DNA of 64,000 nucleotides, taken from a virus. Each line of letters opens with the position of its first letter. The first letter of the stretch is position 1. A model generated the notes under the pieces. That model worked only from the letters and a program-made list of their open reading frames with translations, was not told where the DNA came from and ran no database searches. The stretch covers positions 110,064 to 174,063 of the IMG/VR virus record IMGVR_UViG_3300021077_000115. One strand, given 5' to 3'. The translations under genes and the position numbers were made by a program. Positions 4,076 through 63,276 of the stretch are shown here, piece after piece.

Positions 4076-4327
4076 TCACTCATACATCGGCATCTCTTCA
4101 TCATCCCACTCGGGGATCTTGTCGTACACCAGCAAGTCAATGATCTGTTGCTCTTCCCAATGATCTGGGTGAATGTCCCATGCGCAGACCATATAGCCCT
4201 GGGCTAGCTTCAACAGCTGGTGTATATCGAAACGCTCAGCGAATGACTCACTGCCTGTACTGAATAAATTGTCCGCACGACGAAGTAATTCAATTCCCGT
4301 TACCTTCTGTGCATCTTTTAGTTTCAT
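4076..4327 (-). CDS. hypothetical protein
   Basis: 83-aa ORF. Confidence 0.4.
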   Translation of the reverse strand: MKLKDAQKVTGIELLRRADNLFSTGSESFAERFDIHQLLKLAQGYMVCAWDIHPDHWEEQQIIDLLVYDKIPEWDDEEMPMYE

Positions 4328-4908: not shown

Positions 4909-5202
4909 TCATTTCAAATTGAAAAGAATTGCCGCACACACGCGAACCTTTTCTTCATGCTTCGGCTCAAAAGAAACAATAATTGCTTTTAACATAGCAA
5001 TGCCACGCGATTGATATTCTTTATCAATACCCCCACCAACAGGAATCTTTCCACCATTGAAAAATAAACCATTGACAATATCTGAATATTCTTTTTCATC
5101 AGCATAGCTCGGAAACTCAAAGCTCAACGCCTCTTTGAAAAAATCCTTTGGATATTCAAATAGACCACCAGATATTTTGGGAATGTTTAATTTGTTTGAC
5201 AT
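4909..5202 (-). CDS. hypothetical protein (weak SUKH/SMI1-KNR4-like pattern)
   Basis: Likely starts at MSNKLNIPK inside ORF 4909..5250; the NGG motif region resembles immunity-protein folds only weakly. Confidence 0.4.
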   Translation of the reverse strand: MSNKLNIPKISGGLFEYPKDFFKEALSFEFPSYADEKEYSDIVNGLFFNGGKIPVGGGIDKEYQSRGIAMLKAIIVSFEPKHEEKVRVCAAILFNLK

Positions 5203-5447
5203 AATCCACGCCTCATGTTCGCTTCCTTCTTCCAATGCGCAGCGGATCAAAGTACCACATCACTGCGCAAACAATGAATGCGAATACTAAATTCCTAATG
5301 TCCTCACCCGCCATCATCAACGGACTAGATCGTGTTGACAACTCCAAGGGGCATTCGGCTGATAACGTTATCCCTTGTTGCTATCGCTGCAATTCAGCAC
5401 CTTGAAATATCTATTGATGTTTTTATATTGAGGGGAGGTCGAGGGGC

Positions 5448-5726
5448 TCAGGCTGCGTATACTCGACGACCATTGATCTTGATTACCCCGGGCTCGTTGC
5501 CGCAGCGGATCGACTCGTACAGCCCCTCGACGTATTGGGTAGTGTCACACCCGAGATCGGAGCTGTCCACGGTATCAGCAGTGTCGTAGTCCATCAGCAA
5601 GCAGCTATTGAGCTCAGCGCGGCAAGTGTCGATCATCTCCACGATGCCATCGTCGCCCGCTTGGATCGCGTCGGCCTTGAGTGCGGAGATTTTGGATTCC
5701 ATTGAGTTTACCATTGAGTTTACCAT
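5448..5726 (-). CDS. hypothetical protein
   Basis: 92-aa ORF; its N-terminus lies in a 12-nt tandem duplication (MVNSMVNSM). Confidence 0.4.
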   Translation of the reverse strand: MVNSMVNSMESKISALKADAIQAGDDGIVEMIDTCRAELNSCLLMDYDTADTVDSSDLGCDTTQYVEGLYESIRCGNEPGVIKINGRRVYAA

Positions 5727-5760
5727 TGTCGCTTTCCGTCAGCTCGTTGCTGACACCCCT

Positions 5761-6006
5761 TTAGCCGGCCCCGACTTGACTCGGGTTCCGGCATTGGGTC
5801 CAGGACGACTTACCTGGCTTGAGTTTGGCAAACAAGTCCTGATCAACGTAGTCATCATCTTCAGGATGTTCATGGCCAGATACAATGTTGGTTTGATACC
5901 CTACCGCATGACACTTGCTGCATATCCACTCGAAGTTATGCGGCCTCGGTGGCTGCTGATAGTTTGGCTTTCCACTGAATACCTTGTGATGTAAACATGG
6001 TTCCAT
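5761..6006 (-). CDS. small Cys/His-rich protein
   Basis: 81 aa with C...C...H...H spacing. Confidence 0.35.
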   Translation of the reverse strand: MEPCLHHKVFSGKPNYQQPPRPHNFEWICSKCHAVGYQTNIVSGHEHPEDDDYVDQDLFAKLKPGKSSWTQCRNPSQVGAG

Positions 6007-6094
6007 AAAATTCTTCTTTCTGATTTTTGATTTATCGGCCGGCCTAATGCTTGTGAAAAATTAAGGGCAGCATGAAGCTGCCCTTCCCTCGGCA

Positions 6095-6760
6095 ACAGGA
6101 AAAGAAACCGACACAAAAATTTCTTCACCCGAGGTACGGGATCTGTACCTTACCCTGAGCCGTCGCGAGACGTGAGTCAACTAACGGGCTATGCCAGAGT
6201 CTTTGAAAAGAAAATGGCAGCACAACCAGGCGAGTTTTACCTCGGGTCTTCCTTTCGGATGCCATTCCTGATTGTGCCGCCAAACCCGCTTGAGTTATCA
6301 TTAGGCCGCCGAGCGCTATTTGGCGGGCTAGAGCAACAAAGCTCAACTCAAACTTGCTAAGGGTAGATTACGTTTCCGCCTTAGCCTCGCTCGGTTGGCC
6401 TCACCAACGCTGATCCTTTCGGGGTGACGTTGTGCTGTTCAACCGGAAGCTCCGCCTGGTCTGACGAAGCATTCTTAGCGACGGGCCAAGTTTTGAGAAA
6501 TACCCTTTGCACAAAGCTCAGAGCATCCCCGACCCACTTGGCTTAGCCGGACTTGGCAGTACATCCCAGTTAAGGGTAACCTCCTACGCACCAACGCGCA
6601 ACCGCTGTGGGAAACTAAGCACACGTATATTGCGGTACGTGGCTTATGGTGGATCTTTCACGATTCGAACGTGCCTCTCTGTTACGAGCGCTCACCAAGA
6701 ACCCTGACAGGTGCACGTGTCACCCTTGCAGATTCTCATCCTTTCGGATTGAGCTTAAGA
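6095..6760 (-). ncRNA. Unassigned large structured non-coding region (~650 nt) with tRNA-like 3' element and terminator
   Basis: No ORF of 60 codons or more is consistent with the neighbouring genes. Many short GC-rich helices (e.g. GTGGCGAAAGCCAC-type). On the minus strand a canonical T-loop lies near plus 6645-6675 (CACG-TTCGAAT-CGTG) followed by AAGATCC-A-CCA. A GGGCAGC-loop-GCTGCCC hairpin plus T-run at 6065-6095 sits at the minus-strand 3' side. Confidence 0.35.
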
Positions 6761-7052: not shown

Positions 7053-7179
7053 TATAGCCTCTGTATAAAATTACAGTGTAGGTGGACCCGTTACAACTCG
7101 AACGTAACTCTCATTCGGTAGCTAACCGAAAGCGCTCTTCCCTGAGCCGAGGCCCGAAACATTCATGTAGGTAAGTGTG

Positions 7180-7527
7180 GGTGGAAGTGTTCGGAATCGA
7201 ACCGAAGTCTTGCGATCCTCTCTTATTTCCATCATTCACGTGCGTAGCCACTGTATCCCCAATGGCTGAGTTCGTCAATTCGGTGGACGACCTATTCACC
7301 TGTTTGTCTCGTAAGCAACTTCGGTAACCCAAGTTACTTACCAGCCTTTGTGGTTGGCAATCCTGACCGCTACCAAGACAATCTTGCGGAGGACCGGCCG
7401 TGCTACTTATTAGGCAGCTGCGGCGTATGCATTATCATTCGCATTTAGAACGCCTAATGTTTGGGTGTATTAGGACCACCTACACGCAGGAAATATTTCA
7501 GATCCCAATCGAAAACCTTTCACTCCC
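7180..7527 (-). ncRNA. ssrA: tmRNA (ssrA)
   Basis: Minus-strand 5' end GGGAGTGAAAGGTTTTCGATTGGGATCTG resembles E. coli GGGGCUGAUUCUGGAUUCGACGGGAU. Tag frame at revcomp 7442..7407 reads GCG AAT GAT AAT GCA TAC GCC GCA GCT GCC TAA TAA = ANDNAYAAAA** (cf. ANDENYALAA). 3' end has T-arm TTCGG-TTCGATT-CCGAA, then CACTTCC-A-CC, which pairs with the 5' GGGAGTG. Confidence 0.8.
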
Positions 7528-7699: not shown

Positions 7700-7772
7700 A
7701 GCTACTGAAAGGAATTGAACCTTCAACATCTTGATTACAGGTCAAGTGCTCTGCCAATTGAGCTACAGTAGC
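7700..7772 (-). tRNA. tRNA-Thr (anticodon UGU)
   Basis: Cloverleaf read by eye: acceptor GCTACTG/CAGTAGC, D-arm GCTC-AATTGGCA-GAGC, anticodon arm CTTGA-CCTGTAA-TCAAG (C33 unusual), 5-nt variable loop, T-arm GAAGG-TTCAATT-CCTTT, discriminator T, CCA not encoded. Confidence 0.75.
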
Positions 7773-11224: not shown

Positions 11225-11620
11225 TCAATGTGACGCCGACCAACCGGAACACTCATTAACAAACACACGGATTTCATATCCAATATCTTTGTTGAGGTCT
11301 TTCGTCAAACAGATATCACCAAGTCGGCTCGCACCAGTTACTCGATATAGTTCGCCTTGATATGTGCAGAACAACTTGTAATGCCCAATCTGATCGGTGA
11401 ACGCACTCTGCATAATTGCCGGCAACCGATGCAACATCATAAACCATCGAGCGTACTTCTCGTTTGGGTCTCGCTGATCATTCGGCTTGTTGCTTCCAAA
11501 TGATACAAAATCATCAACGTGTTGCCCTGGAGGCGGTAAGCATACCGGACACGTTAGACCTTCGTTGGTATCATAAAAATCTTGATAACCATGATCATAA
11601 CACCACTCTCTAGTAGTCAT
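11225..11620 (-). CDS. hypothetical protein
   Basis: 131-aa ORF. Confidence 0.45.
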   Translation of the reverse strand: MTTREWCYDHGYQDFYDTNEGLTCPVCLPPPGQHVDDFVSFGSNKPNDQRDPNEKYARWFMMLHRLPAIMQSAFTDQIGHYKLFCTYQGELYRVTGASRLGDICLTKDLNKDIGYEIRVFVNECSGWSASH

Positions 11621-11874
11621 GACTTTTCATCCTTTCGACATCTCGTGCACTCCGGCAAATTGCAGTGCTCTCCAACTTGCGTCCCAACTCGGTAATGATG
11701 ACCGTTCGTCAAGAACCCAACCCCATCGCCGGGACTGATTGAGAACATGTCACTTGCAAAGCTATGCGCCGAGACAGGCCGCCCCGTAGCATCCAACTCA
11801 TGGTACACAACCTTGTTAGATTGGTGCATAACCAAAACCATCTCAACAACTCTGTTATCAACTTGAACTTTCAT
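11617..11874 (-). CDS. hypothetical protein
   Basis: 85-aa ORF. Confidence 0.4.
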   Translation of the reverse strand: MKVQVDNRVVEMVLVMHQSNKVVYHELDATGRPVSAHSFASDMFSISPGDGVGFLTNGHHYRVGTQVGEHCNLPECTRCRKDEKS

Positions 11875-11875
11875 T

Positions 11876-12124
11876 TCAAACCCCAGCTTTCCCGCATAGC
11901 ACTTTCATGTGATATTTAGGAACAACCTGTAATGTGTTGGTTCGATAACTTCCTAAAATCACAAAACCATCATATTTACATTCTTCATTTGCCGCAGCTT
12001 CGCATCTTGAAAGACTCCAATTGCAAGTTATTTCAATTGGTTTTGGTCTTACATCATTAGCTCCATTGTGACGACATCCGAAAGTAAATAAAACCAATCC
12101 AGTGAGAACCAATCCTCTATTCAT
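11876..12124 (-). CDS. small lipoprotein
   Basis: Internal start MNRGLVLTGLVLFTFGC (lipobox TFGC) inside ORF 11876..12343; the upstream part of that ORF overlaps the QueC-like gene and is rejected. Confidence 0.35.
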   Translation of the reverse strand: MNRGLVLTGLVLFTFGCRHNGANDVRPKPIEITCNWSLSRCEAAANEECKYDGFVILGSYRTNTLQVVPKYHMKVLCGKAGV

Positions 12125-12176
12125 AGCGCGTTCTTTCCAGCAGTCGTAATTGCCATCGCGCCAGCCTTGTTGCGAC

Positions 12177-12845
12177 TCAACAACCCACGAACCAATGTTT
12201 ATGCAAATGATCAGCGATATCAATGAGCAATTTGCTGCGACAATCATAAACGATTTTTTTAATCTTACACTTATCACAAGAATCGCAGGGCACGATTCCG
12301 ATGGGTGTGTTACAACAAAACATACAGTCCATTGGAATTTCAAAAGACATTAGCATTTTTATAAGCTGAACATTATCAATGTTCTTCAAAGGAAAGGCAT
12401 ACCGAATAGGCCCTCTCCGCGCACCTTCTAAGTTGTCTGCAAATGAATTGAAACTATTTAGAAGCTTCAAAAAATCCTTCTCTTGATAAGGTTCTCCCTT
12501 TTTATATCCCCATGAAACAATATCTTCAGGCTGAAAATATATTTGGAATAAGCTTGGCCACAGATGATGTTGCCTAAGCATGAGATCCCCTACTGCATTG
12601 CCACTCACCGATATCTCTTGCGCCTGAATGAAATGCCCAATCGACTTCGCAAAACGCAAATACTTGTGCCTTGCAATGGATTGAGCCCGCATCTGTCCAG
12701 CATTGCAACGATGATGTTCCTTTACCGACAATGTTATTACAGGGTTTTCCTTGGTGGAAAGCATACCCGCCATGTAAAGTATCGCCGTTGAATCCAAACC
12801 GCCTGACCAGATCACCACGTTGCGAGCCATTAGCTCACCCCGCAA
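12177..12845 (-). CDS. queC: QueC-like PP-loop ATPase (7-cyano-7-deazaguanine synthase family)
   Basis: N-terminal NVVIWSGGLDSTAILYMA PP-loop (SGGxDS) and C-terminal Cys cluster CCNTPIGIVPCDSCDKC, ~220 aa as for QueC; the middle region is divergent. Confidence 0.5.
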   Translation of the reverse strand: MRGELMARNVVIWSGGLDSTAILYMAGMLSTKENPVITLSVKEHHRCNAGQMRAQSIARHKYLRFAKSIGHFIQAQEISVSGNAVGDLMLRQHHLWPSLFQIYFQPEDIVSWGYKKGEPYQEKDFLKLLNSFNSFADNLEGARRGPIRYAFPLKNIDNVQLIKMLMSFEIPMDCMFCCNTPIGIVPCDSCDKCKIKKIVYDCRSKLLIDIADHLHKHWFVGC

Positions 12846-12879
12846 TCTTCGATTACAACATTACGAGCCATGACTCACC

Positions 12880-13071
12880 TCACTTAATCCTTATCCACTC
12901 GCCATTCCAAAGATACTCTTCGGGATGTAGCGTGTGCTCAGCACAGATTTGACCATTCACATCAATAAAAAACTTGAGCGACTGATCGTTCTTGTAACAA
13001 TCAGGTAATGCTTCGTACGCAAACTCGTCATACTCAAGTAGAACCAACGGATCAGTTCCTAACTCTTTCAT
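12880..13071 (-). CDS. hypothetical protein
   Basis: 63-aa ORF. Confidence 0.35.
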   Translation of the reverse strand: MKELGTDPLVLLEYDEFAYEALPDCYKNDQSLKFFIDVNGQICAEHTLHPEEYLWNGEWIRIK

Positions 13072-13152
13072 ATCAAAACCTTTCTTATGACTTGCCTCAT
13101 CAGATGCGAGGTTGTCACCCTTCGCATGACCGCCTTGCGGCGGTTTCGGCTT

Positions 13153-39457: not shown

Positions 39458-40045
39458 TTGCGCATGGGCGATATAGTAACTGGAAACGGTTTGTGTTTAT
39501 TTTGGACATCATGGCCATCTAATTGGCAATCTTCACCGATGACAATTGATAGCGTTCGCTATAGTTGCGTTGAACAATACATGATGTCTATGAAGGCTAG
39601 GTTATTTGGGGATCTGTTTAATCTGAAAAGGATTATGTCAACCCAAATTCCCAAATTGCAAAAACAATACGGAAGAGAAGTAAAGGGATTCAATCCGGAG
39701 ATATGGGGTGATGTTGCATATGAAGTTGTTCTTCGTGCAACAGTAGAGAAATACAGGCAGAATCCTAAGCTTCTAATTCTCCTTCAAAAAGCTGGTGACT
39801 TGGAATTTGTTGAGGCAAGTCCTGAAGATGTAATTTGGGGAATTGGATTGGGGACTGGTGATCCTGACGCACTCGATAAGTCCAAGTGGCGCGGACAGAA
39901 TCTGCTTGGGAAAGCAATCACCGAAGCCAAGAAGCTGATCGAAGATCTGGAGGCTACCGGCGTAACGCCTGGTGGCGGCGTCAACAAGATCTGGCGGCCA
40001 GGAACAATTGGAAAGTTCCTGATTGGGCTTGAAGAGGCTGGGTGA
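39458..40045 (+). CDS. NADAR-domain protein (YbiA/DUF1768 family)
   Basis: FWTSWPSNWQSSPMTIDSVRYSCVEQYMMSMKARLFGD...EASPEDVIWGIGLG pattern of the NADAR fold. Confidence 0.6.
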   Translation: MRMGDIVTGNGLCLFWTSWPSNWQSSPMTIDSVRYSCVEQYMMSMKARLFGDLFNLKRIMSTQIPKLQKQYGREVKGFNPEIWGDVAYEVVLRATVEKYRQNPKLLILLQKAGDLEFVEASPEDVIWGIGLGTGDPDALDKSKWRGQNLLGKAITEAKKLIEDLEATGVTPGGGVNKIWRPGTIGKFLIGLEEAG

Positions 40046-48683: not shown

Positions 48684-49022
48684 ATGAAACGCCAAATATT
48701 CAAGTCAAAGATCCATCGAGCAACCGTAACTGGATCAAATATAGACTACGAAGGTAGTGTTACGATTGACTCTAATTTAATGCGAGCGGCTGATATTGTT
48801 CCATATGAGGCAGTTCATATTTGGAACATAACTAACGGTTCACGCCTTTTCACATACGCCATTCAGGGTGATAATGACAGCGGAGAAATTTGTATCAATG
48901 GCGCTGGGGCAAAGCTGTGCAATGTTGGAGATCTAGTTATTATCGCAACATTTACCGAGATGACAAACAAAGTAGCCCGCAAGTGGATACCAAGGGTTGC
49001 CAGCAGTTCAACGGAAACTTGA
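48684..49022 (+). CDS. panD: aspartate 1-decarboxylase (pyruvoyl-dependent)
   Basis: [78 protein letters not shown]; the [10 protein letters not shown]...YEGS(pyruvoyl Ser)...ICINGAAA pattern is diagnostic. Confidence 0.7.
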
Positions 49023-49032
49023 CTAAAGTTAC

Positions 49033-49269
49033 TTGACTCCGCTCAACCCGTGGGTAATCCTTTTATCAGATCGGATGTACATGAAGATGAAAGTGGTTCG
49101 AGTTTCGGCCACTGAGTTCGAATTGGAAGACGGTAGGGTATTTCCCCACGTCACCCCACTCGAACCGGTTCCGACTCCCGAAGAGTTTCAAGTACATTAC
49201 GACCTGTGGTCAGATCGGTTGAAGTCCAAGGATGTCCAGTGGCCTCGTTTCGCTCAAAAAAGCGGCTGA
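49033..49269 (+). CDS. hypothetical protein (overlaps tnpA start)
   Basis: 78 aa; weak. Confidence 0.3.
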   Translation: MTPLNPWVILLSDRMYMKMKVVRVSATEFELEDGRVFPHVTPLEPVPTPEEFQVHYDLWSDRLKSKDVQWPRFAQKSG

Positions 49270-49855
49270 AATCCTTGGTTGTGGTACCTCGACGCTTCGG
49301 ACTTGGGACAAGAACAAGAGCCTCGTAGCCGTTAGAACCCCAGGTGGTCAGCGCCGGTACCGCACTGAAGACCTAGACCGCTTCCAAGGGATCATCAAAA
49401 AGACCTCCAAGATGTCGGAAAATGTCGCTGTCTACGCTCGGGTTTCGAGCCATGAGCAGAAGGCTAAGGGCGACCTTGACCGTCAAAAGGGAAGGCTTCT
49501 AGAGCATTGCGTCAAGCAGAGCTACTCGGTGACGCATGTCATGGAGGAAGTCGGATCTGGGATGACGGACACTCGGCCGAAGATGCTCCGCCTTCTTGAG
49601 TTGGCCACGAGGGGCGAGATTGGGCGGGTGGTTATCGAGCACAAGGATCGACTCGCGAGGTTCAACTTCAACATATTCCAAAAGTTCTTCGAGAGTCATG
49701 GTGTACAGGTTGAGTGGCTGGAAAACGTGCTCCCAAAGTCCTACGAGGCCGAACTAGTCGAGGATATGGTCAGCCTCATGTCCAGCTTCTCAGCCAAAGT
49801 TTACGGAAAACGGAGCGCTGAGAACCGCCGAAAGAAGAAGCAAGAGGCCGCCTGA
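49232..49855 (+). CDS. tnpA: IS607-type serine recombinase/transposase TnpA (MerR-like HTH + resolvase catalytic domain)
   Basis: LKKAAEILGCGTSTLRTWDKNKSLVAVRTPGGQRRYRTEDL HTH, then VAVYARVSSHEQK catalytic-Ser motif. Confidence 0.8.
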   Translation: MSSGLVSLKKAAEILGCGTSTLRTWDKNKSLVAVRTPGGQRRYRTEDLDRFQGIIKKTSKMSENVAVYARVSSHEQKAKGDLDRQKGRLLEHCVKQSYSVTHVMEEVGSGMTDTRPKMLRLLELATRGEIGRVVIEHKDRLARFNFNIFQKFFESHGVQVEWLENVLPKSYEAELVEDMVSLMSSFSAKVYGKRSAENRRKKKQEAA

Positions 49856-50190
49856 TGGAACCTAATGAGTCAAAGATTGAGGTTTTCGCAAGGTGGTACG
49901 GGTATCCGTCTGTCTACTGTCAAGCGAGCACACCAGATTACCGATATGTCGTAGCTATCCCTAGACTCCCCTACAACATACTGGAAGAATTCAAGAAGGA
50001 ACTGGACTCTCACTCCTCCGATGGTGATCCATACTTCGTGTTTGAATACTCAGATCAGTTCCTCAGTATAGCCGGTACCTTTGATATTCCGCGTAACCAC
50101 TGTGAGAGTTGGGTGCAATGCTACTTGACTGCCCGCCCTGAGGGTGGGCTCAGATTCAAAAACGAGCCATGGTCAGAAAGGAACCCATGA
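49855..50190 (+). CDS. hypothetical protein between tnpA and tnpB
   Basis: 111-aa ORF. Confidence 0.4.
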   Translation: MEPNESKIEVFARWYGYPSVYCQASTPDYRYVVAIPRLPYNILEEFKKELDSHSSDGDPYFVFEYSDQFLSIAGTFDIPRNHCESWVQCYLTARPEGGLRFKNEPWSERNP

Positions 50191-50603
50191 CAAGTTACTC
50201 CAACTTCTTTGAGATGCTGGACGCTATTGAAGCGAAGATGCAAGACCCACGTTGTAAGGAGGCTGGACTCACCCCTTACACAGGGGAGCCTCTACTAACG
50301 AGTATGGATCTTGGGTGGATCGTTGCGCTTCCCCTAAGCGAACGGGACGAAACATTCCAGTTCAGTGTGAGTCTACGTCAGATAAAGATTGACCGGCAAG
50401 ATCCTAGATGGGCCGATGCTTATGCCAGGCTCCAATCATTTACGACCCACTTCATTACATGTCCAAAGCATGGGGTGGTTAAAGGCATCCCGATACACAA
50501 GCTTCAAGGCAAGAAAGAGGGATCTGAGACGCTGGTATGCATACCTTGTGTGGCTGAGCGCATGGTGAATCCTGTTCGAACTTCAGCCAATCTCTCGATA
50601 TGA
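50169..50603 (+). CDS. hypothetical protein between tnpA and tnpB (C..H...C..C)
   Basis: 144-aa ORF. Confidence 0.4.
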   Translation: MVRKEPMTSYSNFFEMLDAIEAKMQDPRCKEAGLTPYTGEPLLTSMDLGWIVALPLSERDETFQFSVSLRQIKIDRQDPRWADAYARLQSFTTHFITCPKHGVVKGIPIHKLQGKKEGSETLVCIPCVAERMVNPVRTSANLSI

Positions 50604-52027
50604 AGAAATGTCGGTTCTTCATGCTGCATCCTGAGTGCAACCCTGGGAAGATTCAATCCCTGGAAGCTCTTCACGTCGAGTACATAGCTTATGTCCGGAT
50701 CTGCGTTCAGACGATGCTCAAAGCCCATAGGCTGACTTTGCCCCGCTCGGAGAAGCAGGACTTCTTCCCCAGGGCTGAGAAGCTTACGTCTCAGATTGAG
50801 AAAAACGCCCGCGACCATGCCATCCAGATTGTGAGCACTTGGGCTAAGTCGGTTTATGCCAGGAAGATCAAGACTTTCATCAGGTTATCTTTCAAAGAGG
50901 GGAACTTTGACGAGGACTTCTGTAAGCAGCTTTACACGGTGGGTAAGTACTTGATTCATGAGCCGAAGGAAACCGTGTCCCAGGAAGCAATTGATCTGTA
51001 TTGGTCTTGGCTCTCTGACCCAGAAGTAGTGGGGAACCCGCCTTCCATATCCAGTCGGATTCCAATGAGGATGTCGGAGAACACCTGCTCATTGGAAGAC
51101 CCAGAAGAGGCTACCCACGCGGATCTTTGGCTCAAGATCTCAACTTTGATTTCTCGGAAGCTTGCTTGGCTACCACTGGTTGGGAACCCATACGTCAAGA
51201 AGTCATCTGACGTAAGTAAGGGAATCCACGCTAGAAAAGACCGAAAGGGCCGTTGGCGGTTCGAAGCCGTTGATACCAAAGAGTGGTTGGTCTGCGAGGC
51301 CGAACCTGACTTACCCAGGATTGGAGTCGATGTAGGACTAAACGTGGTAGCGGCTACTTCGAGCGGACACGTGTTTGGGGCCTACCTAAAACCCAAGTTC
51401 AACAGGCTCTACGACAAGGTCAGGGAAGTCAGGGCGAACCGCCAAAGGCAGGATCTCAAGGAGAACAGTCCTAGGCTAGACCGACTAGAATCACGCCTCT
51501 CTGGCTTGACCAAGAGCTTCACGGGACGGGTATCCAATGAACTGATCCGAACGTACTCTGAGTCCGTCTTCGTCTTAGAAGACCTAGATCTTCGTGGTTG
51601 TCGTGGGCAAAAACGCTTCTGTTACAGGGAATTAGCTCATGCCCTTGAATCAAAGGCTCCAACTGAAAAGGTGAATCCGGCCTACAGTTCTCAGACATGC
51701 CCTTCGTGTGGGCATGTCTCTAGATACAATCGGGCTGGAATAGATTTCATCTGTCGCCAGTGCGGCAGGATTTCACATGCCGACGTGGTAGGAGGGATCA
51801 ATTTGCTCGGACGTTCCGAGAGCAAACAGATTGGCCTCGATGATCATCCGTCGGAAGTGAAGGGAGTGCTTGTGAGGCTATACTGGTCTAGGAGGAATCC
51901 GGATCAGGACTGTCCACAAGACTTCTTGAATAAATACGCGCCATTACCGTATGGCCGAAGGCTTACTACCAGGGGACTCTCTCGAAAGAGAAGCACTGGC
52001 ATAGCTTTTAATCAGGTAGCTGCTTGA
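50600..52027 (+). CDS. tnpB: TnpB (OrfB_IS605/RuvC-like RNA-guided nuclease family)
   Basis: RuvC-I IGVDVGLN, RuvC-II VFVLEDLDL, zinc finger CPSCGH...CRQCG, RuvC-III HADVVGGINLL. Confidence 0.8.
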   Translation: MKKCRFFMLHPECNPGKIQSLEALHVEYIAYVRICVQTMLKAHRLTLPRSEKQDFFPRAEKLTSQIEKNARDHAIQIVSTWAKSVYARKIKTFIRLSFKEGNFDEDFCKQLYTVGKYLIHEPKETVSQEAIDLYWSWLSDPEVVGNPPSISSRIPMRMSENTCSLEDPEEATHADLWLKISTLISRKLAWLPLVGNPYVKKSSDVSKGIHARKDRKGRWRFEAVDTKEWLVCEAEPDLPRIGVDVGLNVVAATSSGHVFGAYLKPKFNRLYDKVREVRANRQRQDLKENSPRLDRLESRLSGLTKSFTGRVSNELIRTYSESVFVLEDLDLRGCRGQKRFCYRELAHALESKAPTEKVNPAYSSQTCPSCGHVSRYNRAGIDFICRQCGRISHADVVGGINLLGRSESKQIGLDDHPSEVKGVLVRLYWSRRNPDQDCPQDFLNKYAPLPYGRRLTTRGLSRKRSTGIAFNQVAA

Positions 52028-52221
52028 CTACACGTAAGTTTGAGCAACTTCTTGAGTACGGTAATCCTGGTTGATGAAAAAAACAAGATAACACCCATTG
52101 TTGGTATTGCTATCGATCTGGAAACCGCACCCATTAGGCCTGATGAAAAAAAACCAACTACAATAATGGTGAACACTAATTACTGGCAGAACCCTATCGG
52201 AACTAATAGCACAGGTATCGG

Positions 52222-52506
52222 ATGAAATCTTTCATACCTCAAGCCTGGGCAATTCCGCCAGGTAGACATAGATCACAATTCAGAGTTGTAACTAAGTTCT
52301 TTGTATTCAAATATGTTTTACCAACTATTGTTGATGGATATTATCTTCAACAACGGCGATGGAAGCAAAATATTATACAGGAATATAAGGTAATTGGTGA
52401 TTTGTATTGCGGATGTAGAGAAGTTCATAAATGGATTGATGTTTCTTGGTACGATAACTGCCTAGAAGCATGTGGTGATACCTGCGACCTGCGACCCAGG
52501 CCATAG
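52222..52506 (+). CDS. hypothetical protein
   Basis: 94-aa ORF. Confidence 0.35.
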   Translation: MKSFIPQAWAIPPGRHRSQFRVVTKFFVFKYVLPTIVDGYYLQQRRWKQNIIQEYKVIGDLYCGCREVHKWIDVSWYDNCLEACGDTCDLRPRP

Positions 52507-53763: not shown

Positions 53764-54027
53764 ATGCGAACATATACATTGTCACGAATTTATATTGATA
53801 CAGAACACCAGAGAGATTGCTGTGGGGATATAAATTATACAAATAGTGAGCCATTTCTTATTATAAAGTGCAATGATGTCCCAATTAGATTTGCATCTGT
53901 TAAGAGCATTGAATCTAGTAGAGATATTTTTGAGAAACTAGACACTAACATCTTTACAGTTGAAGATATATTAGATGTTTTGTGTAAAAGTAAATTAACT
54001 ATCTCACACGATATGGAAACATTATGA
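53764..54027 (+). CDS. hypothetical protein
   Basis: 87-aa ORF. Confidence 0.4.
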   Translation: MRTYTLSRIYIDTEHQRDCCGDINYTNSEPFLIIKCNDVPIRFASVKSIESSRDIFEKLDTNIFTVEDILDVLCKSKLTISHDMETL

Positions 54028-55286
54028 CTAGAACATTTGAATTAGGCGGCGAAGTAAACACTAGCAAAATAAGTTCTACTGTTAGTGTTCGTGACCAAAT
54101 CATACAAAAAGTTGGTGGGGATATTGAACAGGTTTGCGAGCTTGGTCATCCTCTAATCGGCGGAAAACCAGGATATCGTGATGAATCGTATATATCAAAT
54201 CTAGTTGGTCTAGCCCACCTTTCATTCTCTAGTCACCGCCATATGATATTGGATCCAGATGCAGTCTGGATTACAATCGAACATGGGCTGGCAACTCACA
54301 TCAAAGAGAATGCCGAAGCTCTTCGTGACAAGTTCGTTTCATTCAAGGGCAAACGAACAATCGATATCAGGCGAGACGAATTTAGGCGCGGCTCAATCAA
54401 TAATTGGGAGGGATGCTTTGATGAGTTCTCGGAGAAGATTGGGGAATTTATCGGCCCAAAGAAAGATTTGATTGTCGGAAATTTCTCGACCACAGGACAG
54501 CTACAAAGAGTATCCTCCGAAATTGTTCTGATGGATGCTATGAGTAAATACTTCGATTACTCAGTCAAAACATGTTGTCACATTCCTGTGATAACCCTCA
54601 CTGGTACTGTGGAAGATTGGGAACGCATCCGTGATAAGGTGAATTCATTTGATGAATTTGGTTTGTCTTGGTGGGCAGATCACCTGAAGCCAGTCCTTGA
54701 TCAATTAGTTCTAGCCGCTAAGGGAGAGGTTGATATTGACTTCTGGAAGAGCTGGTATAAAGAGGGCGGCGGTAGTGGTGGCCCATTTATCTCAGGACAT
54801 GTCAACGCATTCTTTCCATATTTAGGAAGAGATAATAGTAAAAACAAGTATATGGGTACTTGTCCGTCTCATCACGGGAATACTCTATCCTCTTTCAACC
54901 AATCTATTTCTAAGGTTCCATTCATTTGGGATTACTATAACCAGGAATATCCTATGGAGTTTGTTGGTGGATTGATTGGGCTAACACAAGATGACTCTGG
55001 CCGTGTTCAATGTTCCTTTGGCTGGGCTGTTCGAGATGAGTCAGTTCCACTCTCTAATTACCCAATCGAGAAGCTTGTGAAGGATATGGTCATCCACAAC
55101 AAAGATGGAGAGGCCGGATTATTGAAGAGAGCTGAGGCAGAGCATTGGGATAATGCTCCAGATGACAAGCAGCTTTACGAAGTTCAAATCGAATGGAAAG
55201 ACGGTTTGAAGACTTATAAGCAATGGGATTTTAATAATTTGTTCGTCAAAGAACCTGCTAATGGAGAGCAGATGGTGGTAGAGTAA
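54024..55286 (+). CDS. hypothetical 420-aa protein (no family assignable by eye)
   Basis: Long ORF; GGGSGGPFISGHVNAFFPY glycine-rich motif; stops and starts overlap across 54024-57292. Confidence 0.55.
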   Translation: MTRTFELGGEVNTSKISSTVSVRDQIIQKVGGDIEQVCELGHPLIGGKPGYRDESYISNLVGLAHLSFSSHRHMILDPDAVWITIEHGLATHIKENAEALRDKFVSFKGKRTIDIRRDEFRRGSINNWEGCFDEFSEKIGEFIGPKKDLIVGNFSTTGQLQRVSSEIVLMDAMSKYFDYSVKTCCHIPVITLTGTVEDWERIRDKVNSFDEFGLSWWADHLKPVLDQLVLAAKGEVDIDFWKSWYKEGGGSGGPFISGHVNAFFPYLGRDNSKNKYMGTCPSHHGNTLSSFNQSISKVPFIWDYYNQEYPMEFVGGLIGLTQDDSGRVQCSFGWAVRDESVPLSNYPIEKLVKDMVIHNKDGEAGLLKRAEAEHWDNAPDDKQLYEVQIEWKDGLKTYKQWDFNNLFVKEPANGEQMVVE

Positions 55287-55287
55287 T

Positions 55288-56166
55288 ATGCCAACAAGAA
55301 TCATTGCATTAGGTACAGGCTCTGCCTTCACAATGAACAACTACCAAACTAACTTTGTCATCAAAAGAAATGGCAAGTATCTTTTGGTAGATTGTGGTGG
55401 CGATGTCAGATTTAGCCTTAGAGATCAGGGCCTGTCTGCCAAGGATATAGATGCTGTCTATATTTCACATGCTCACGCAGATCATGTGGGCGGCATGGAG
55501 TTCTTGGCATTCACACGCTACTTTACAAAGAGATCAATGGAAAATGCTAGGGCCCTCGCGCGAACTGTCGATCCTGAGCATTCCCCAGAGCCACTTCAAT
55601 TACCAGTGCTATTCTGTGAGCATGGGATGATTCGAACACTTTGGGATCACTCATTACGAGGAGGTCTCGAAGGACTTGAGGGAATCGACGCCAACATCGA
55701 CACCTATTTCAGGGTACATCCAGTGCCAAAAAACGGATCGTTCGAGTGGGAGGGCTTGAAGTTCGATATCGTTCAAAGCCTTCATGTCTCTGCTAAATAT
55801 AGTATTGTTGATTCATTCGGGCTGATGTTTACTGATGATATTGGGTATCGAATATTCATCACTACAGATGTTCAGTTCGCCCCAGAGACATCTATGAAAG
55901 CCTATTACAAAGAGGCTGATGTCATAATTCATGACTGCGAAACAGGATTCAAAAGCGGAGTTCACGCCCATTACGATCAGCTAAGGACATTGGATAATAG
56001 CATTAAGAATAAGATGCTTTTGGTTCACTACCAAGACAATGTCTTGGAAGATTGGAATGCGTGGGTGGACAAGGCCAACCAGGACGGCTTCGACGGATTC
56101 GTCAAGCCTGGGCCGATTTGGTCTGATGAACCACCTGACGTAATCGCAGCAACAACGAATGTTTGA
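55288..56166 (+). CDS. metallo-beta-lactamase-fold hydrolase (RNase Z / cyclic-nucleotide phosphodiesterase-like)
   Basis: ISHAHADHVGG (HxHxDH), downstream ITTDVQ and IIHDCE, then HAHYD metal-ligand-like residues. Confidence 0.6.
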   Translation: MPTRIIALGTGSAFTMNNYQTNFVIKRNGKYLLVDCGGDVRFSLRDQGLSAKDIDAVYISHAHADHVGGMEFLAFTRYFTKRSMENARALARTVDPEHSPEPLQLPVLFCEHGMIRTLWDHSLRGGLEGLEGIDANIDTYFRVHPVPKNGSFEWEGLKFDIVQSLHVSAKYSIVDSFGLMFTDDIGYRIFITTDVQFAPETSMKAYYKEADVIIHDCETGFKSGVHAHYDQLRTLDNSIKNKMLLVHYQDNVLEDWNAWVDKANQDGFDGFVKPGPIWSDEPPDVIAATTNV

Positions 56167-56242
56167 CATCGGGCGGACAGCCTGATACGATGTCGGCAAC
56201 CTTCTCACGGAGAGAAGAAGTCGGTACAACACGGAGAGTGTT

Positions 56243-57292
56243 ATGAAGAAAATGAAGATTGGTGTTTTCATTGCTCGGCTACAACCGTTTCATCTTGCCC
56301 ACGTTGATATTGTAAAGTTGGCAATGAAAGATAACGATCATGTGGTTATAATTCTTGGCTCTGCATGTCAGGCTAAGACAATCAAGAATCCATGGACTAC
56401 TGACGAGCGCGAATTGATGATTCGCAAATGTCTTACGTCAGAAGGAAATACCCACATAAGTGTTGTTGCTGCTAAAGACTATTTCTATAATGACAACATG
56501 TGGCTATCTTCATTGCAGTCTGCATTGGGGTCTGTAAAGGTCAATGGCGTTGAAGTTGACCTTGATGATTGTGACGTAACGCTTTATGGTCATGATAAGG
56601 ATAGGTCAACATTCTATCTCCACTTATTTCCTAAGTGGAAGCTCAATGATGTTGGAAACTTACGCACAGAGTTTCCTAGGCTAGATGCAACGTTGGTCAG
56701 ATCATTTTTCTTCAAAGGTAATACGGCTGAGTTAAGAAAGTTTATACCACAACCTGTATATGATATGTTGCTATCAGAAATGGGAACTAGTACATACCAA
56801 AATCTTGTTGCAGAATTCGACCACATTACTGAGTATAGAGCGCTATGGGCCTCATCTCCGTATCCAGTTCAATTTGTGACAACCGATGCTCTTGTGATAA
56901 AGTCCGGACACGTACTAATGACGGTGCGTGGCGGATATCCAGGCAAAGGTCTAATCGCGCTACCTGGCGGATACTTGAATCCAGATGAGCGTATAGTTGA
57001 CGGATGCCTTCGTGAGTTAAAAGAAGAAACGCAAATCGCTGTTAGCAAAGATGAGTTGAGGAAGGCAATTGTTGATCAGAGGGTCTTCGATCATCCAGAA
57101 CGTTCTTTGCGCGGACGAACTATTACACATGGTTATTGCATAAATCTCGGTGCCGGAGACCTTCCAAAAGTAAAGCGCGGTGACGATGCCGCTGAAGCGT
57201 TTTGGATGCCACTTCGAGATGTTTATCGTAGAGAAGAAGATTTCTTCGAGGATCACTTCCACATCATATTCTTTTTTACTTCGAAATTTTAG
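56243..57292 (+). CDS. nadM: bifunctional NMN adenylyltransferase (NadM-type) / Nudix ADP-ribose pyrophosphatase
   Basis: N-terminal MKIGVFIARLQPFHLAHVDIV (archaeal-type NMNAT (H/T)xGH); C-terminal GGYLNPDERIVDGCLRELKEETQI Nudix box. Confidence 0.8.
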   Translation: MKKMKIGVFIARLQPFHLAHVDIVKLAMKDNDHVVIILGSACQAKTIKNPWTTDERELMIRKCLTSEGNTHISVVAAKDYFYNDNMWLSSLQSALGSVKVNGVEVDLDDCDVTLYGHDKDRSTFYLHLFPKWKLNDVGNLRTEFPRLDATLVRSFFFKGNTAELRKFIPQPVYDMLLSEMGTSTYQNLVAEFDHITEYRALWASSPYPVQFVTTDALVIKSGHVLMTVRGGYPGKGLIALPGGYLNPDERIVDGCLRELKEETQIAVSKDELRKAIVDQRVFDHPERSLRGRTITHGYCINLGAGDLPKVKRGDDAAEAFWMPLRDVYRREEDFFEDHFHIIFFFTSKF

Positions 57293-57345
57293 AATAACTA
57301 AAGTTCGGCGTCGAGAACGCCAAGGGGCGTGGCGTTCTCTACGCT

Positions 57346-58680
57346 ATGAATCGCGTTCAAGAAGTAAAAAAAGCCTTTCCTGAATTTGCCAGTTTAGCTA
57401 TCGAGACGGCAGACCCAAAACATAAGAACAAATACCTTATGTGGATTGCCTCTCAATTGGCTAAGAAATACAGCCCGGAAGATATCCGATCAACGATATC
57501 GTCCTTTCATAAAGACTCAAGGCGTCTTCGAAAATCTGACATATATTCATATCCAGATTTGAAAGTTCTTGATAACGAGATCAAAGACCTAGCGATGAGC
57601 AAGCGGCAGGTTGAGATCTTCTCTAAAGAAATGGGCGCTGTGAAGATATTCGGCGATGAGTCTTGCACACTCGTGAGGATAAATAGCAAGACCGCCATGC
57701 TGTACTACGGTAAAGCATCTAAGTGGTGTATTGCCATGGAATCTGAAGAGTATTGGGAAGACTATAGCTCTAGCGGGAATGTCTTCTATGTCCTTTTGGA
57801 TAAAGAAAATCAGCGCAAGTATGCCATCCAGAAAAAAGGACTGATGGATGTTACAATCTGGGAAGAGGATGACGACGAAGTAGATGATATTGATGATTGG
57901 GTTAAGCGCAACGACAAGTTCGAATCTGCAGTATTTGCATGTCTTCACGATCGTGAAGAACCAATGCTTTACCGTATAAAGAGAGGTCTCACCACTCGCC
58001 AAGAAGTATCTGAATGGATAAAGTACCAGAATCAAAACACCATTAAGTTCTTGCATAATATGACTGGTGTTGGGTATTATCTCTTTGATCCTGCATCGGT
58101 AACTAGAAAAACAATCAAGTTATTATCCACACTCAATATTAAGTACCTTGAAGCTATCAGTGCAGAGTATCCTAACTTCATTACTGATGTTGCTAATTTC
58201 TTGGCAGCAAATCCCAAGGTAGTTTTTAAAAGCTTTAGATTTAGATTGGCCCATCTACTTCCAGATCCAGATCTCATTCTAAATGAAGAAGATGCAAACT
58301 TCATTAAGATGAATACAGATCCTTCAATAGCGTCTAAACTTCTTACAAGTAAAAAGCAAGAAGTGTGGAGTAAGGCGCTTCTGGTTGCAAAGCCATCAAC
58401 AATCGTCTCTATATTACCCTCAGTAAAGAGAACTCAAAAGAGAGAGTTCATTCGCAGATTGAAAATGCGAACAGATTATGCCAAATTAATAGAATGGCTG
58501 GCTGCTACAAATCTTCAAATACCCAATGAAGTTTGGCTGAGTAAAGCAAAGGGACAATACGGCGAATACGCCGAAGAAGACAAGTGCACTGAAGAAGATG
58601 AAGAGTGTGATGAGGAAGAAGACTCGGAAGTAATCGTTGGTGTCACCGGTTCCCAACCGATGACCGATGCCTTCCACTGA
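57346..58680 (+). CDS. hypothetical 444-aa protein with acidic C-terminus
   Basis: C-terminus EEDKCTEEDEECDEEEDSE. Confidence 0.5.
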   Translation: MNRVQEVKKAFPEFASLAIETADPKHKNKYLMWIASQLAKKYSPEDIRSTISSFHKDSRRLRKSDIYSYPDLKVLDNEIKDLAMSKRQVEIFSKEMGAVKIFGDESCTLVRINSKTAMLYYGKASKWCIAMESEEYWEDYSSSGNVFYVLLDKENQRKYAIQKKGLMDVTIWEEDDDEVDDIDDWVKRNDKFESAVFACLHDREEPMLYRIKRGLTTRQEVSEWIKYQNQNTIKFLHNMTGVGYYLFDPASVTRKTIKLLSTLNIKYLEAISAEYPNFITDVANFLAANPKVVFKSFRFRLAHLLPDPDLILNEEDANFIKMNTDPSIASKLLTSKKQEVWSKALLVAKPSTIVSILPSVKRTQKREFIRRLKMRTDYAKLIEWLAATNLQIPNEVWLSKAKGQYGEYAEEDKCTEEDEECDEEEDSEVIVGVTGSQPMTDAFH

Positions 58681-59715: not shown

Positions 59716-60315
59716 ATGTCAAAAGAATCTGGTGTTGACCGTTATGGAAGGGCAAAGATTAGGTCTGCTCCGCCAGAAAATCCACTTGTTCAAAGGATAA
59801 AGATGGCAGCTGATGACTGCCCTCCAATAGATTCTTTGAAACGTGTTACGAATGATTTCCCAACGGGCTGCCCGTCAACAGCAATATCATTGAAGTTCGA
59901 AGAGAAACATCCAGATGTGCTTGTCATCCAGTGCAGTGATGGCAGGTACACCTCGATAGTCTCCGAGCTCATGCAGAGCAACGGGATCACGCGCTATGAT
60001 GTGATGGCAATGCCAGGAGGCCCAGCGCTGGCGAACGCTTCCATTCTACAATCAGAGGCTTGCAAGACTGGTACGTCTTTCTTAATCAAAGGCCATAACA
60101 CAAGAAAAGTATGGCTGTTAACTCACTCTGAATGTGGGTACTATAAGTATAATCTCAATGGTATGCCAAGAGAGACAATTACTAATAGACAGATTAGAGA
60201 TCTTCAAATGGCAGCCATCTGGCTTCGTAATGTAAATAAAAGCCTTGAGGTTTACGCATCATACATTATCAACAATAATGGTATTGCGTCTTTCAAAACC
60301 ATAGAGATTGAATAG
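59716..60315 (+). CDS. hypothetical protein with beta-carbonic-anhydrase-like motifs
   Basis: VLVIQCSDGR and LTHSECGY resemble the beta-CA C(S/A)DSR and HxxCG zinc-ligand motifs. Confidence 0.4.
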   Translation: MSKESGVDRYGRAKIRSAPPENPLVQRIKMAADDCPPIDSLKRVTNDFPTGCPSTAISLKFEEKHPDVLVIQCSDGRYTSIVSELMQSNGITRYDVMAMPGGPALANASILQSEACKTGTSFLIKGHNTRKVWLLTHSECGYYKYNLNGMPRETITNRQIRDLQMAAIWLRNVNKSLEVYASYIINNNGIASFKTIEIE

Positions 60316-60317
60316 TC

Positions 60318-60770
60318 ATGCCTATCGAACCAAATCCTTTTGATGACGAACGCCTTGCAAAGATTAGAGCTGAGCAAGGAGACCCTCTAATTCAATACTA
60401 CATCGTAAGAACTGACTTGAACATGAGCGCAGGAAAGATGGGAGCCCAAATAGCTCACGGCGCTCAGATGTTCGTTATACGATCTGGAACTCTGGCAGAA
60501 CGTCACAAAAACGATATGACTCCACTGAAGCCAGAGTATGAAGAGATCTTGGGGGTTGTGGCAGAGTGGATGAATGGAAGTTTCCGCAAGGTTGTGCTCG
60601 GCGGCAAGAAGAAGGACTTCGAGAAGATCATTGCTGAGCTGCGGGTCTTCCTCGTGCGCGATGCCGGCCTGACCGAAGTGGAGCCCAACTCCGAGACAGT
60701 GTTGGTGACATGGCCAATTAGGCGATCTGAATGTCCTAAAATATTGAAAAGACTTCAAACTCTAAAGTAA
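60318..60770 (+). CDS. pth2: peptidyl-tRNA hydrolase, PTH2 family
   Basis: QYYIVRTDLNMSAGKMGAQIAHGA and the C-terminal ETVLVTWP...ILKRLQTL match PTH2 ([21 protein letters not shown]...TVLGIGP...HLKL). Confidence 0.65.
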   Translation: MPIEPNPFDDERLAKIRAEQGDPLIQYYIVRTDLNMSAGKMGAQIAHGAQMFVIRSGTLAERHKNDMTPLKPEYEEILGVVAEWMNGSFRKVVLGGKKKDFEKIIAELRVFLVRDAGLTEVEPNSETVLVTWPIRRSECPKILKRLQTLK

Positions 60771-61977: not shown

Positions 61978-63276
61978 GTGAAGAAAAACTACATTCTTGA
62001 TACTAACGTGCTGATTCATGACCCACAATCGATATTCAAATTTGAGGACAACAACCTATACATTCCAATTTACGTATTAGAAGAACTAGATAAATTGAAG
62101 AGCGAGCTTTCCCTTCGTGGACGAAATTCACGCGAAGTTTGCCGATTGCTCGATGACCTGCGCTGCCAAGGCTCATTACCAGAAGGGGTTCCGGTAGGAG
62201 ATGGTAAGCTAATCATTTACGTCCCCCAAGAGCGGAAGGTCATCAAGGTTGCTCTCGATTCAAAAAGCATGGACAACGCAATACTTCAGTGCGCTGTTGA
62301 AATCAAGGAATCTTCCGAACTTATATCCATCATGGTAACCATGGATGTTAACCTTCGCATCCGCGCTGAATGCATAGGAGTTCAAACAGCTTCATACGAA
62401 TTCCAATCAGTAGACACTTCGCATATGATTACTGGTCACACCAATATGAATGTGGATCTTGAAGACATTGATAGGCTATTCAGTGAAGGATCTATTTTAC
62501 CAAAAGAATCTGATGAGGAGTTGTTTGATAACATCTGCATCATGCTAAAAGATCCAAGTGGCAAAACTGCTATTGGAAGATACAATAAGAAAAAGAACAT
62601 CGTAACTCCAATTCGTCCACATGGCGATGTGATGGGTATCAAGCCAAGGAACGTAGAACAGAAATTCGCATTGGATTTGCTACTCGATGATAATGTCAAA
62701 ATCGTAACCCTATCTGGTACCGCTGGTGGTGGTAAAACACTACTTGCTTTGTGTGTTGGTTTACAAAAGACGCTTGACGGCAAATATTCAAGACTACTTG
62801 TCAGTAGACCAATCATGCCTCTAGGTAAAGATATTGGATATCTAAAGGGAACTCTTGAAGAGAAGATGAATCCTTGGATGCAACCAATTTATGACAATCT
62901 AGAATTGCTCATGATGCAGGGCGGCGGAAAACGCAAAGGTCTCAAGTATGATGATTTGTTTGAACAAGACATTATTCGCGTAGAGCCTCTGACGTATATC
63001 CGAGGAAGAAGCTTACCTGGCCAATTCATTATTATTGATGAGGCACAGAACCTAACTAGTCATGAAATTAAAACAATCATTACAAGATGCGGTGAAGGCT
63101 CGAAGATAGTATTAACTGGTGATCCTGAACAGATTGATAGCCCGTACATGGATAAGGGATCTTGTGGATTAAGTGTTGCGGTCGAGAAACTTCATGATAA
63201 TCCTATTGTAGGTCATCTCACCTTATCTAAGGGCGAGCGTTCTGAGCTGGCAAATCTAGCAGCTAATCTGATGTAG
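61978..63276 (+). CDS. phoH: PhoH2 (N-terminal PIN domain + PhoH-like ATPase)
   Basis: PIN ILDTNVLIHD; Walker A LSGTAGGGKTLLA; Walker B/DEAQ IIIDEAQN. Confidence 0.8.
   Translation: MKKNYILDTNVLIHDPQSIFKFEDNNLYIPIYVLEELDKLKSELSLRGRNSREVCRLLDDLRCQGSLPEGVPVGDGKLIIYVPQERKVIKVALDSKSMDNAILQCAVEIKESSELISIMVTMDVNLRIRAECIGVQTASYEFQSVDTSHMITGHTNMNVDLEDIDRLFSEGSILPKESDEELFDNICIMLKDPSGKTAIGRYNKKKNIVTPIRPHGDVMGIKPRNVEQKFALDLLLDDNVKIVTLSGTAGGGKTLLALCVGLQKTLDGKYSRLLVSRPIMPLGKDIGYLKGTLEEKMNPWMQPIYDNLELLMMQGGGKRKGLKYDDLFEQDIIRVEPLTYIRGRSLPGQFIIIDEAQNLTSHEIKTIITRCGEGSKIVLTGDPEQIDSPYMDKGSCGLSVAVEKLHDNPIVGHLTLSKGERSELANLAANLM

Follow-up and report, generated by a model that had tools for sequence, protein, structure and literature searches.

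Do three consecutive, co-oriented genes in a 64,000-nt stretch of viral DNA (IMG/VR record IMGVR_UViG_3300021077_000115, positions 110,064 to 174,063; hereafter the window, to which all coordinates without a locus label refer) encode a single pathway for rebuilding nicotinamide adenine dinucleotide (NAD+), or are they separate functions that lie side by side? An earlier note, made from the letters alone, had read them as one noncanonical NAD+-reconstitution and ADP-ribose-processing operon with a possible counter-defense role. The three open reading frames (ORFs) it delineated are present on the + strand: gene 1 (54024..55286) codes for a 420-aa protein of Pfam family DUF4419 and predicted enzyme, gene 2 (55288..56166) for a 292-aa, metallo-β-lactamase (MBL)-fold putative class II phosphodiesterase of the Apyc1 family, and gene 3 (56243..57292) for a 349-aa NadM-Nudix fusion, in which a nicotinamide mononucleotide (NMN) adenylyltransferase (NMNAT) domain spans residues ~1-190 and a Nudix domain of the ADP-ribose pyrophosphatase type residues ~200-349. 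We consider it probable that the locus belongs to an accessory counter-defense-type island in a huge phage, where an Apyc1-family phosphodiesterase, the Nmnat half of the NAD+ pathway NARP2 and a DUF4419 protein stand as separable genes rather than as steps of one pathway. The counter-defense and NAD+ flavor ascribed to the region is thereby retained, as carried by the Apyc1-family and NARP2-type proteins, and the single operon is not.

This conclusion draws on gene order in the syntenic relatives of the locus, IMG/VR viral contigs of 60-460 kb (DUF4419 identity in L011 and L012, 85%; L006, 75%; L013, 61%; L007 and L014, 55%). The order DUF4419-MBL-NadM is kept in L006. In L011 and L012 the MBL gene is missing, with only its start codon and ~8 codons left in the alignment after the DUF4419 stop; since L011 retains both this 5′ remnant and the leader of the NadM gene, the absence of MBL there is a deletion. 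Across the relatives, the slot that follows DUF4419 is filled by MBL, by a KptA/Tpt1 gene (L007 and L014), by an unrelated 278-aa ORF (L013) or by nothing. Given the deletion in L011, the variability of this slot and the promoter-like site in the 76-nt gap ahead of NadM, DUF4419, MBL and NadM-Nudix are separable genes and form no conserved unit.

The local architecture can be followed junction by junction. Overlapping stops and starts had been described across the genes, which holds on the 5′ side, where the stop of an 87-aa ORF (53764..54027, +) overlaps the DUF4419 start by 4 nt (ATGA) and the DUF4419 and MBL genes are 1 nt apart, but fails between MBL and NadM, which are 76 nt apart. Junctions of ≤5 nt are the norm in the window (37 of 94 same-strand junctions, 39%), and tight spacing is therefore no evidence for shared function beyond background. 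The spacer itself (56167..56242, +) serves as the leader of NadM-Nudix and is kept in L011 despite the loss of MBL there. The best σ70-like match in the 53-59 kb region lies upstream of NadM-Nudix at 56163..56191 (+; TTGACA, 17 nt, TACGAT, with an extended -10 TG) and spans the MBL stop codon, although the regional count of such matches does not stand out from shuffles (18 vs. 13.9 ± 3.2). Within the leader, CACGGAGAG occurs twice (56206-56238, +) at a distance of 24 nt, compared with 0.37 occurrences expected per window, and its second copy is the ribosome-binding site; folding of the leader exceeds that of shuffles only modestly (z = -2.19). The upstream 87-aa ORF has zero Pfam or PHROG matches and fails to align with the 86-aa ORF found at the same position in L006.

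A single noncanonical NAD+-reconstitution pathway would have DUF4419 provide a Nampt-like step and the MBL protein process an ADP-ribose-derived intermediate for NadM-Nudix. Its appeal lies in the contiguity and common orientation of the three genes, in six related loci (55-85% identity) where DUF4419 likewise precedes NadM-Nudix, and in the absence of Nampt from the 64-kb window, a point already made from the sequence and now borne out by tblastn with two phage Nampt probes. However, synteny among the six loci means that their linkage is largely inherited, and a simple 5-kb indel accounts for the missing Nampt. In blastn comparisons L006 10936-11286 corresponds to window positions 56931-57278 and L006 16336-16973 to 57345-57982, whereas the intervening L006 11305-16335 has no counterpart between positions 57292 and 57346, which places the junction of the missing ~5-kb segment at 57293..57345. 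The segment in L006 comprises a radical-SAM gene with an intein, three small ORFs, Nampt and a 149-aa ORF, and it is absent from L011 and L013 too. Canonical Nampt lies 3-4 kb downstream of NadM in L006, L007 and L014: in L006 at 3 kb, just ahead of the homolog of the window's 444-aa gene (57346..58680, +), and in L007 and L014 within the order NadM, (NADAR), radical-SAM gene, Nampt. DUF4419 and Nampt hence coexist in three relatives, and DUF4419 is therefore no Nampt substitute; it moreover bears no similarity to Nampt (NAMPT_N/NAPRTase) or to any phosphoribosyltransferase in sequence or fold, with DUF4419 as its sole Pfam match. With L011 retaining DUF4419 and NadM while its MBL gene is deleted, and with the fusion partners of DUF4419 being protein-recognition repeats (see below), we regard a single pathway as highly improbable.

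The radical-SAM gene accompanies Nampt in all three relatives that carry the latter (L006, L007 and L014). In L006, regions 3141-6320 and 11305-13107 harbor inteins with LAGLIDADG homing-endonuclease remnants, situated inside an NAD-dependent epimerase gene and inside the radical-SAM gene.

The identity of gene 3 as a NadM-Nudix fusion, proposed previously, is well founded. The protein aligns end to end with the NCBIfam bifunctional NMNAT/Nudix models (best NF003791, 366.7 bits, falling under the 409-bit equivalog cutoff) and over its full length with the Synechocystis slr0787 (2QJO, E 2.5e-90) and Francisella (2QJT, E 2e-60) NadM-Nudix structures; it also matches phrog_395 (E 1.2e-68), and its homologs are common in phages, occurring in 484 of 50,697 phage records. 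The protein has a complete Nudix box, whereas its nucleotidyltransferase motifs depart slightly from the consensus, with HLAH in place of HxGH and DATxxR in place of SSTxxR. NARP2 pairs Nampt with Nmnat within one phage genome (10.1101/2024.02.11.579819), and the 349-aa protein, which has the same NMN adenylyltransferase and Nudix architecture as the Nmnat component of the NadV/NatV pair of Vibrio phage KVP40, is, as judged from sequence, the Nmnat component of such a pathway. Unlike the complete NARP2, which restores NAD+ and overcomes defenses that deplete it, the window lacks Nampt and the syntenic Nampt segment is gone, so that the pathway is incomplete here unless a Nampt is encoded elsewhere in the ~392-kb genome. 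In a survey of viral NAD+ genes every phage with NadM also carries NadV (PMC9503650); none of the 120 listed Nampt homologs, with >8,000 further matches beyond these, lies on a 391,957-bp contig, the length of the contig attributed to this genome below. As the partner is missing at the locus, rebuilding of NAD+ would therefore need a Nampt elsewhere in the genome or NMN made by the host. NARP3 (PnuC and NadR) was set aside as a different gene set.

For gene 2 the MBL fold had been recognized and Apyc1 named among the possible families, and the assignment can now be sharpened to that family. The protein scores 109.3 bits against PF23023 (Anti-Pycsar_Apyc1), twice the curated cutoff of 50, and its best PDB matches are the three Apyc1 structures (7u2s, 2.6e-30; 7u2r, 2.1e-26; 7t28, 3.1e-22), which outscore the nearest other MBL structures (YhfI-like 1zkp, 1e-6, and 6kns, 5e-5; ELAC/RNase Z, ~1e-4) by 16-24 orders of magnitude. 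PF23023 is carried by all 120 homologs among the matches listed, and the subfamily, with 614 homologs at E ≤ 1e-10, constitutes a huge-phage branch. We aligned the protein to SBSphiJ gene 147, whose ORF numbering fits the published H64/H66/H69/E74/Y112 (PMC9117128). The alignment is full length but for one insertion, and it shows the HxHxDH motif and the other metal ligands to be kept (H61/H63/D65/H66, D175, H215/D216, H226 and H247), together with E71 as the equivalent of E74; H61, H63, D65, H66, D216, H226 and H247 are invariant across 41 homologs. Apyc1 proteins are phage-encoded MBL-fold class II phosphodiesterases, and their characterized homologs cleave cyclic mononucleotides (PMC9117128). 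By these likenesses the 292-aa protein is a new member of the Apyc1 family and a predicted cyclic-mononucleotide phosphodiesterase. Apyc1 itself is further characterized by H64, H66 and H69 (SBSphiJ numbering) among the ligands of two Zn2+, by a homodimer whose extended loop enters the nucleotide pocket, by relaxed base specificity in the hydrolysis of cCMP and cUMP, and by the inhibition of Pycsar in vivo.

Several observations weigh against so specific a reading. Identity to the characterized Apyc1 proteins is only 28-31%, measured against SPO1-like Bacillus phage homologs including SBSphiJ. A ~20-aa insertion follows the HxHxDH helix and varies even among close relatives, and the C terminus is extended by ~35 aa; both may be adverse to the assignment. 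Y112, which in SBSphiJ is a catalytic residue contributed, as is E74, by the opposing protomer (PMC9117128), has no aligned counterpart and falls on a gap or on Glu-Gly. Since the position is likewise unaligned in the Apyc1 structure 7u2s, which has Asn there, Y112 may not define the family. The family furthermore goes by the name "ribonuclease BN" among the JGI annotators, and fusions to Nudix domains along with NAD+-gene neighborhoods, both described below, could point to a substrate other than cyclic mononucleotides.

The JGI name belongs to an alternative in which the locus is an RNA repair or tRNA-processing module, with the MBL protein as an RNase Z/BN-like nuclease and DUF4419 as an RNA-end-processing factor. 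Genes that neighbor DUF4419, among them KptA/Tpt1 in L007 and L014, Thg1 and a PNK-like gene in L009, and HAD_SAK_2, are in keeping with it, as are the transfer-messenger RNA (tmRNA), tRNA and PTH2 encoded in the window. The NCBIfam RNase Z/BN equivalog models do match the N-terminal 80 residues of the MBL protein, yet with 58.9 and 55.4 bits against cutoffs of 252 and 293, and over residues 4-83 only; we consider an RNA-processing role hardly probable. PADLOC has zero models matching either the MBL protein or DUF4419.

The Nudix fusions bear on a different alternative, namely that the Apyc1-like protein cooperates with Nudix chemistry on ADP-ribose-containing or dinucleotide-type signals or by-products (such as Thoeris/TIR products or ADP-ribose cyclic phosphate) and is not a cyclic-mononucleotide-specific anti-Pycsar enzyme. 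Three clusters of homologs at ~50% identity (P0198, P0201 and P0212, the last being L069 8001-9287) have a small Nudix domain at the N terminus and an Apyc1-like MBL phosphodiesterase domain at the C terminus, and the MBL gene adjoins NadM-Nudix in the window, L006, L077 and L079 and NADAR in eight loci. The fused domain is nevertheless a generic small MutT-like Nudix (best PDB E 1.5e-7, to MutT/DIPP proteins) and not of the NadM ADP-ribose type, and the gene context of the fusion (L069/L070) is uninformative. The active-site residues, in turn, fit Apyc1 and its activity on cyclic mononucleotides, and anti-defense islands explain the co-location equally well. We hold an ADP-ribose-type substrate to be unlikely and retain cyclic mononucleotides as the predicted one.

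The co-location itself was assessed in 77 viral loci around Apyc1-like genes, with NAD+ probes found independently of this family. NadM, Nampt, NADAR or Nudix genes lie ≤5 kb from the Apyc1-like gene in 15 of the 77 (P = 2e-5 against a rough 5% background; P = 0.018 against 10%). The linkage decays with distance, in that 14 of 17 matches fall ≤2.5 kb from the gene, where 58% of the ORFs lie (P = 0.036). L077/L078 and L079 show the order MBL, NadM-like, Nampt, and NADAR occurs within ~2 kb of the Apyc1-like gene in eight loci. Recurrence beside NadM, Nampt or NADAR genes, at times with Nudix fusion, thus distinguishes the huge-phage subfamily from Apyc1 as described. The simplest reading of the linkage is an anti-defense island: PycTIR, a Pycsar effector, is a cUMP-activated NADase (PMC9117128), and because some Pycsar effectors are such TIR NADases, signal destruction and NAD+ rebuilding would be complementary.

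The product of gene 1 had been left unassigned, and profile hidden Markov model (HMM) searches place it in Pfam family DUF4419 (PF14388; E 1.3e-65), with residues 60-336 covering the whole profile (3-303 of 303). This is a family without assigned function, for which the literature searched on DUF4419/PF14388 contains two passing mentions and nothing functional. It is also a large one, with 8,666 representative clusters at E ≤ 0.001, of which 3,788 remain at E ≤ 1e-30, and is common to huge phages, giant eukaryotic viruses, Myxococcota and Planctomycetota. Relative to the Pfam profile, the phage clade adds ~55 N-terminal residues and a β-rich C-terminal domain of ~80 residues (~341-420), an extension confined to the huge-phage clade. 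An AlphaFold model built on 88 homologs is confident (pLDDT 93.5). HMM searches of the MBL and 420-aa proteins, as proposed in the earlier note, yielded a family for each, Apyc1 and DUF4419; sequence and structure searches yielded no solved relative for the fold of the latter: a PDB profile search with the DUF4419 alignment gives nothing below E 0.14, and the protein has neither a sequence nor a fold match in the PDB. In BFVD the fold recurs only in uncharacterized proteins: DUF4419 members from giant eukaryotic viruses, plus proteins from LbFV and entomopoxviruses; two of the entomopoxvirus matches bear the label "apoptosis inhibitor", which we disregarded as being without support in the literature searched.

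Two alignments agree on invariant H71, R101, C185 and D198, as well as W128, P188, G194, W217 and others, and conservation extends to a GGSGGP loop. The domains fused to DUF4419 in a set of 50 long family members are LRR (5), FHA (3), ankyrin (2), HEAT, SUKH-1, DUF2750 and TonB_C, with no nucleotide or NAD+ domain among them. The invariant His/Cys/Asp/Arg core and the LRR, FHA and ankyrin fusions suggest that DUF4419 is an enzyme, probably one that acts on protein targets; that they are the sole basis for this idea counts against the reading of the locus that we prefer. DUF4419 genes also occur as tandem paralogs of two to three adjacent copies (L022 7080-9131; L032 8001-11342, whose contig falls in a giant-virus bin), and one 759-aa protein (P0241) contains two DUF4419 copies.

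Is DUF4419 tied to NAD+ and ADP-ribose biology even if it takes no part in NAD+ reconstitution? Its neighborhoods, as read from gene content, are suggestive of such a tie. A PARP gene lies directly downstream of DUF4419 in L021 (9168-10646) and 1.6 kb upstream in L015 (6869-8395, equal to L016 4698-6221); at greater distances come ADP-ribosylglycohydrolase (ARH; 3-4 kb, L025 and L029), SIR2 (3.8 kb, L031) and NADAR (4.7 kb, L018); and two Myxococcus genomes have SIR2 immediately upstream of DUF4419. The density of NAD+/ADP-ribose genes falls from 4.6% at 0-2 kb to 0% beyond 6 kb. It is important to note that the probes for this test were themselves found near DUF4419, and that 12 of the 18 matches come from one syntenic clade. 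A tentative view, to which we assign a minor share of probability, is that DUF4419 represents an unrecognized enzyme family of NAD+/ADP-ribose conflict biology, for instance a hydrolase or transferase with a Cys/His/Asp site whose targets are proteins that carry ADP-ribose or another modification, and that its placement beside NadM-Nudix, Tpt1, PARP, SIR2, ARH and NADAR is functional.

Evenly poised, in our estimate, is the proposal that DUF4419 has nothing to do with NAD+ or ADP-ribose, being instead an enzyme of host takeover or an effector enzyme that chance placed in a variable accessory region. NAD+/ADP-ribose genes are missing from the vicinity of DUF4419 in about 15 of 22 independent viral lineages and in most of the 34 bacterial loci, the bacterial loci as a group showing no conserved operon and having LysR, Metallophos and, in two Myxococcus genomes, SIR2 as neighbors. 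The background for such neighbors is high, because NAD+-ADPr network genes are present in >85% of jumbo phages (PMC9503650), and the protein-recognition partners (LRR, FHA, ankyrin, HEAT and SUKH-1) likewise accord with this proposal. Against it stand the adjacent and near-adjacent PARP genes, the SIR2 genes of Myxococcus and L031, the ARH genes, the NADAR gene of L018 and the lack of any match beyond 6 kb.

The PARPs of L021 and L015 are full eukaryote-type proteins with WGR, PARP regulatory and catalytic domains, encoded on viral contigs of 120 and 219 kb. In Myxococcus the same-strand gene just upstream of DUF4419 codes for a SIR2-family protein in some genomes and for a calcineurin-like metallophosphoesterase in the others (L061 3921-4733; L062 3885-4733; L055, L057, L059 and L063). 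A candidate "ADP-ribose-binding protein" beside DUF4419 in Virus Rctr197k was rejected, as it has an in-frame stop and no Pfam match.

The window derives from a huge phage with a genome of ~392 kb, since a protein 100% identical to the 292-aa MBL gene product is recorded on a 391,957-bp contig of JGI sample 3300046484 and the syntenic relatives reside on the 60-460 kb contigs described above. We also counted toward this origin the tmRNA, the tRNA and the ~111 small, tightly packed ORFs of the window. A blastn search of the 3.3-kb locus against 50,697 phage records returned zero matches. The tmRNA gene (7179-7527, -; Rfam 96 bits; tag peptide ANDNAYAAAA) adjoins a gene for tRNA-Thr(TGT) (7700-7772, -), and a divergent strand switch at ~22700 coincides with a change in the sign of GC skew, negative before and positive after.

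A further gene of the ADP-ribose/NAD+ network lies on the same strand, 14 kb upstream of the locus: the NADAR-domain protein encoded at 39464..40045 (+) matches PF08719 with 130.9 bits and the PADLOC candidate defense model PDC-M42C with E 6.6e-36. Between this gene and the locus sits an IS607-like element (49232-52027, +), composed of a gene for a MerR helix-turn-helix (HTH)/serine-resolvase protein (49232-49855, +), two small ORFs and a TnpB/Cas12f-like gene (50600-52027, +). Its GC content is 0.51, compared with 0.39-0.46 in the flanks, and the absence of a counterpart to block 48997-52424 from L006 suggests a recent insertion.

Downstream of the locus, the 444-aa protein has an acidic C-terminal tail and zero Pfam families above cutoff. 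Its gene is the syntenic partner that comes after the NAD+ genes in all close relatives, following NadM in L011 and L013 and Nampt in L006. Regions 59716-60770 and 62269-63276 (+) encode a putative β-carbonic-anhydrase-like protein (Pro_CA_2), the archaeal/eukaryotic-type peptidyl-tRNA hydrolase PTH2 and a PIN-PhoH protein, genes that are syntenic with the NAD+ genes in L011 and L013 too; the PhoH gene call in L068 runs farther upstream and takes in the PIN domain. Just beyond the end of the window, L068, of the same genome, encodes a 2H/LigT-type phosphoesterase (L068 9214-9819, ~64176-64781 in window numbering) that shows a faint Pfam match to the anti-CBASS protein Acb1 and lies ~8 kb downstream of the locus.

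From what is observed, namely membership in families, conservation of catalytic residues, synteny and indels, together with activities that are all predicted from homology, we propose that the Apyc1-family protein would bind, as a homodimer, the phosphate of 3′,5′-cyclic mononucleotides at its HxHxDH di-zinc site and open them to the 5′-NMP. The cCMP and cUMP alarm signals of Pycsar would in this way be destroyed before they activate their effectors, TIR NADases included. NadM-Nudix would convert NMN and ATP to NAD+, and ADP-ribose to AMP and ribose-5-phosphate, as shown for its homologs. DUF4419 would act independently of both, on protein targets, perhaps with a link to NAD+/ADP-ribose conflict biology. 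As two of the three genes are of known counter-defense or NAD+-salvage kinds, the locus reveals no new NAD+ pathway.

What it does bring into view is a large huge-phage branch of Apyc1 proteins whose genes tend to neighbor those of NARP2 and NADAR, with occasional fusion to Nudix domains. This suggests that phages couple the destruction of cyclic-nucleotide alarm signals to the repair of NAD+ damage that these signals trigger, and it yields a testable prediction on substrate range. DUF4419, for its part, combines thousands of clusters with a confidently predicted structure, a fold that appears to be new and a clear candidate active site, and is thereby a tractable family for biochemistry.

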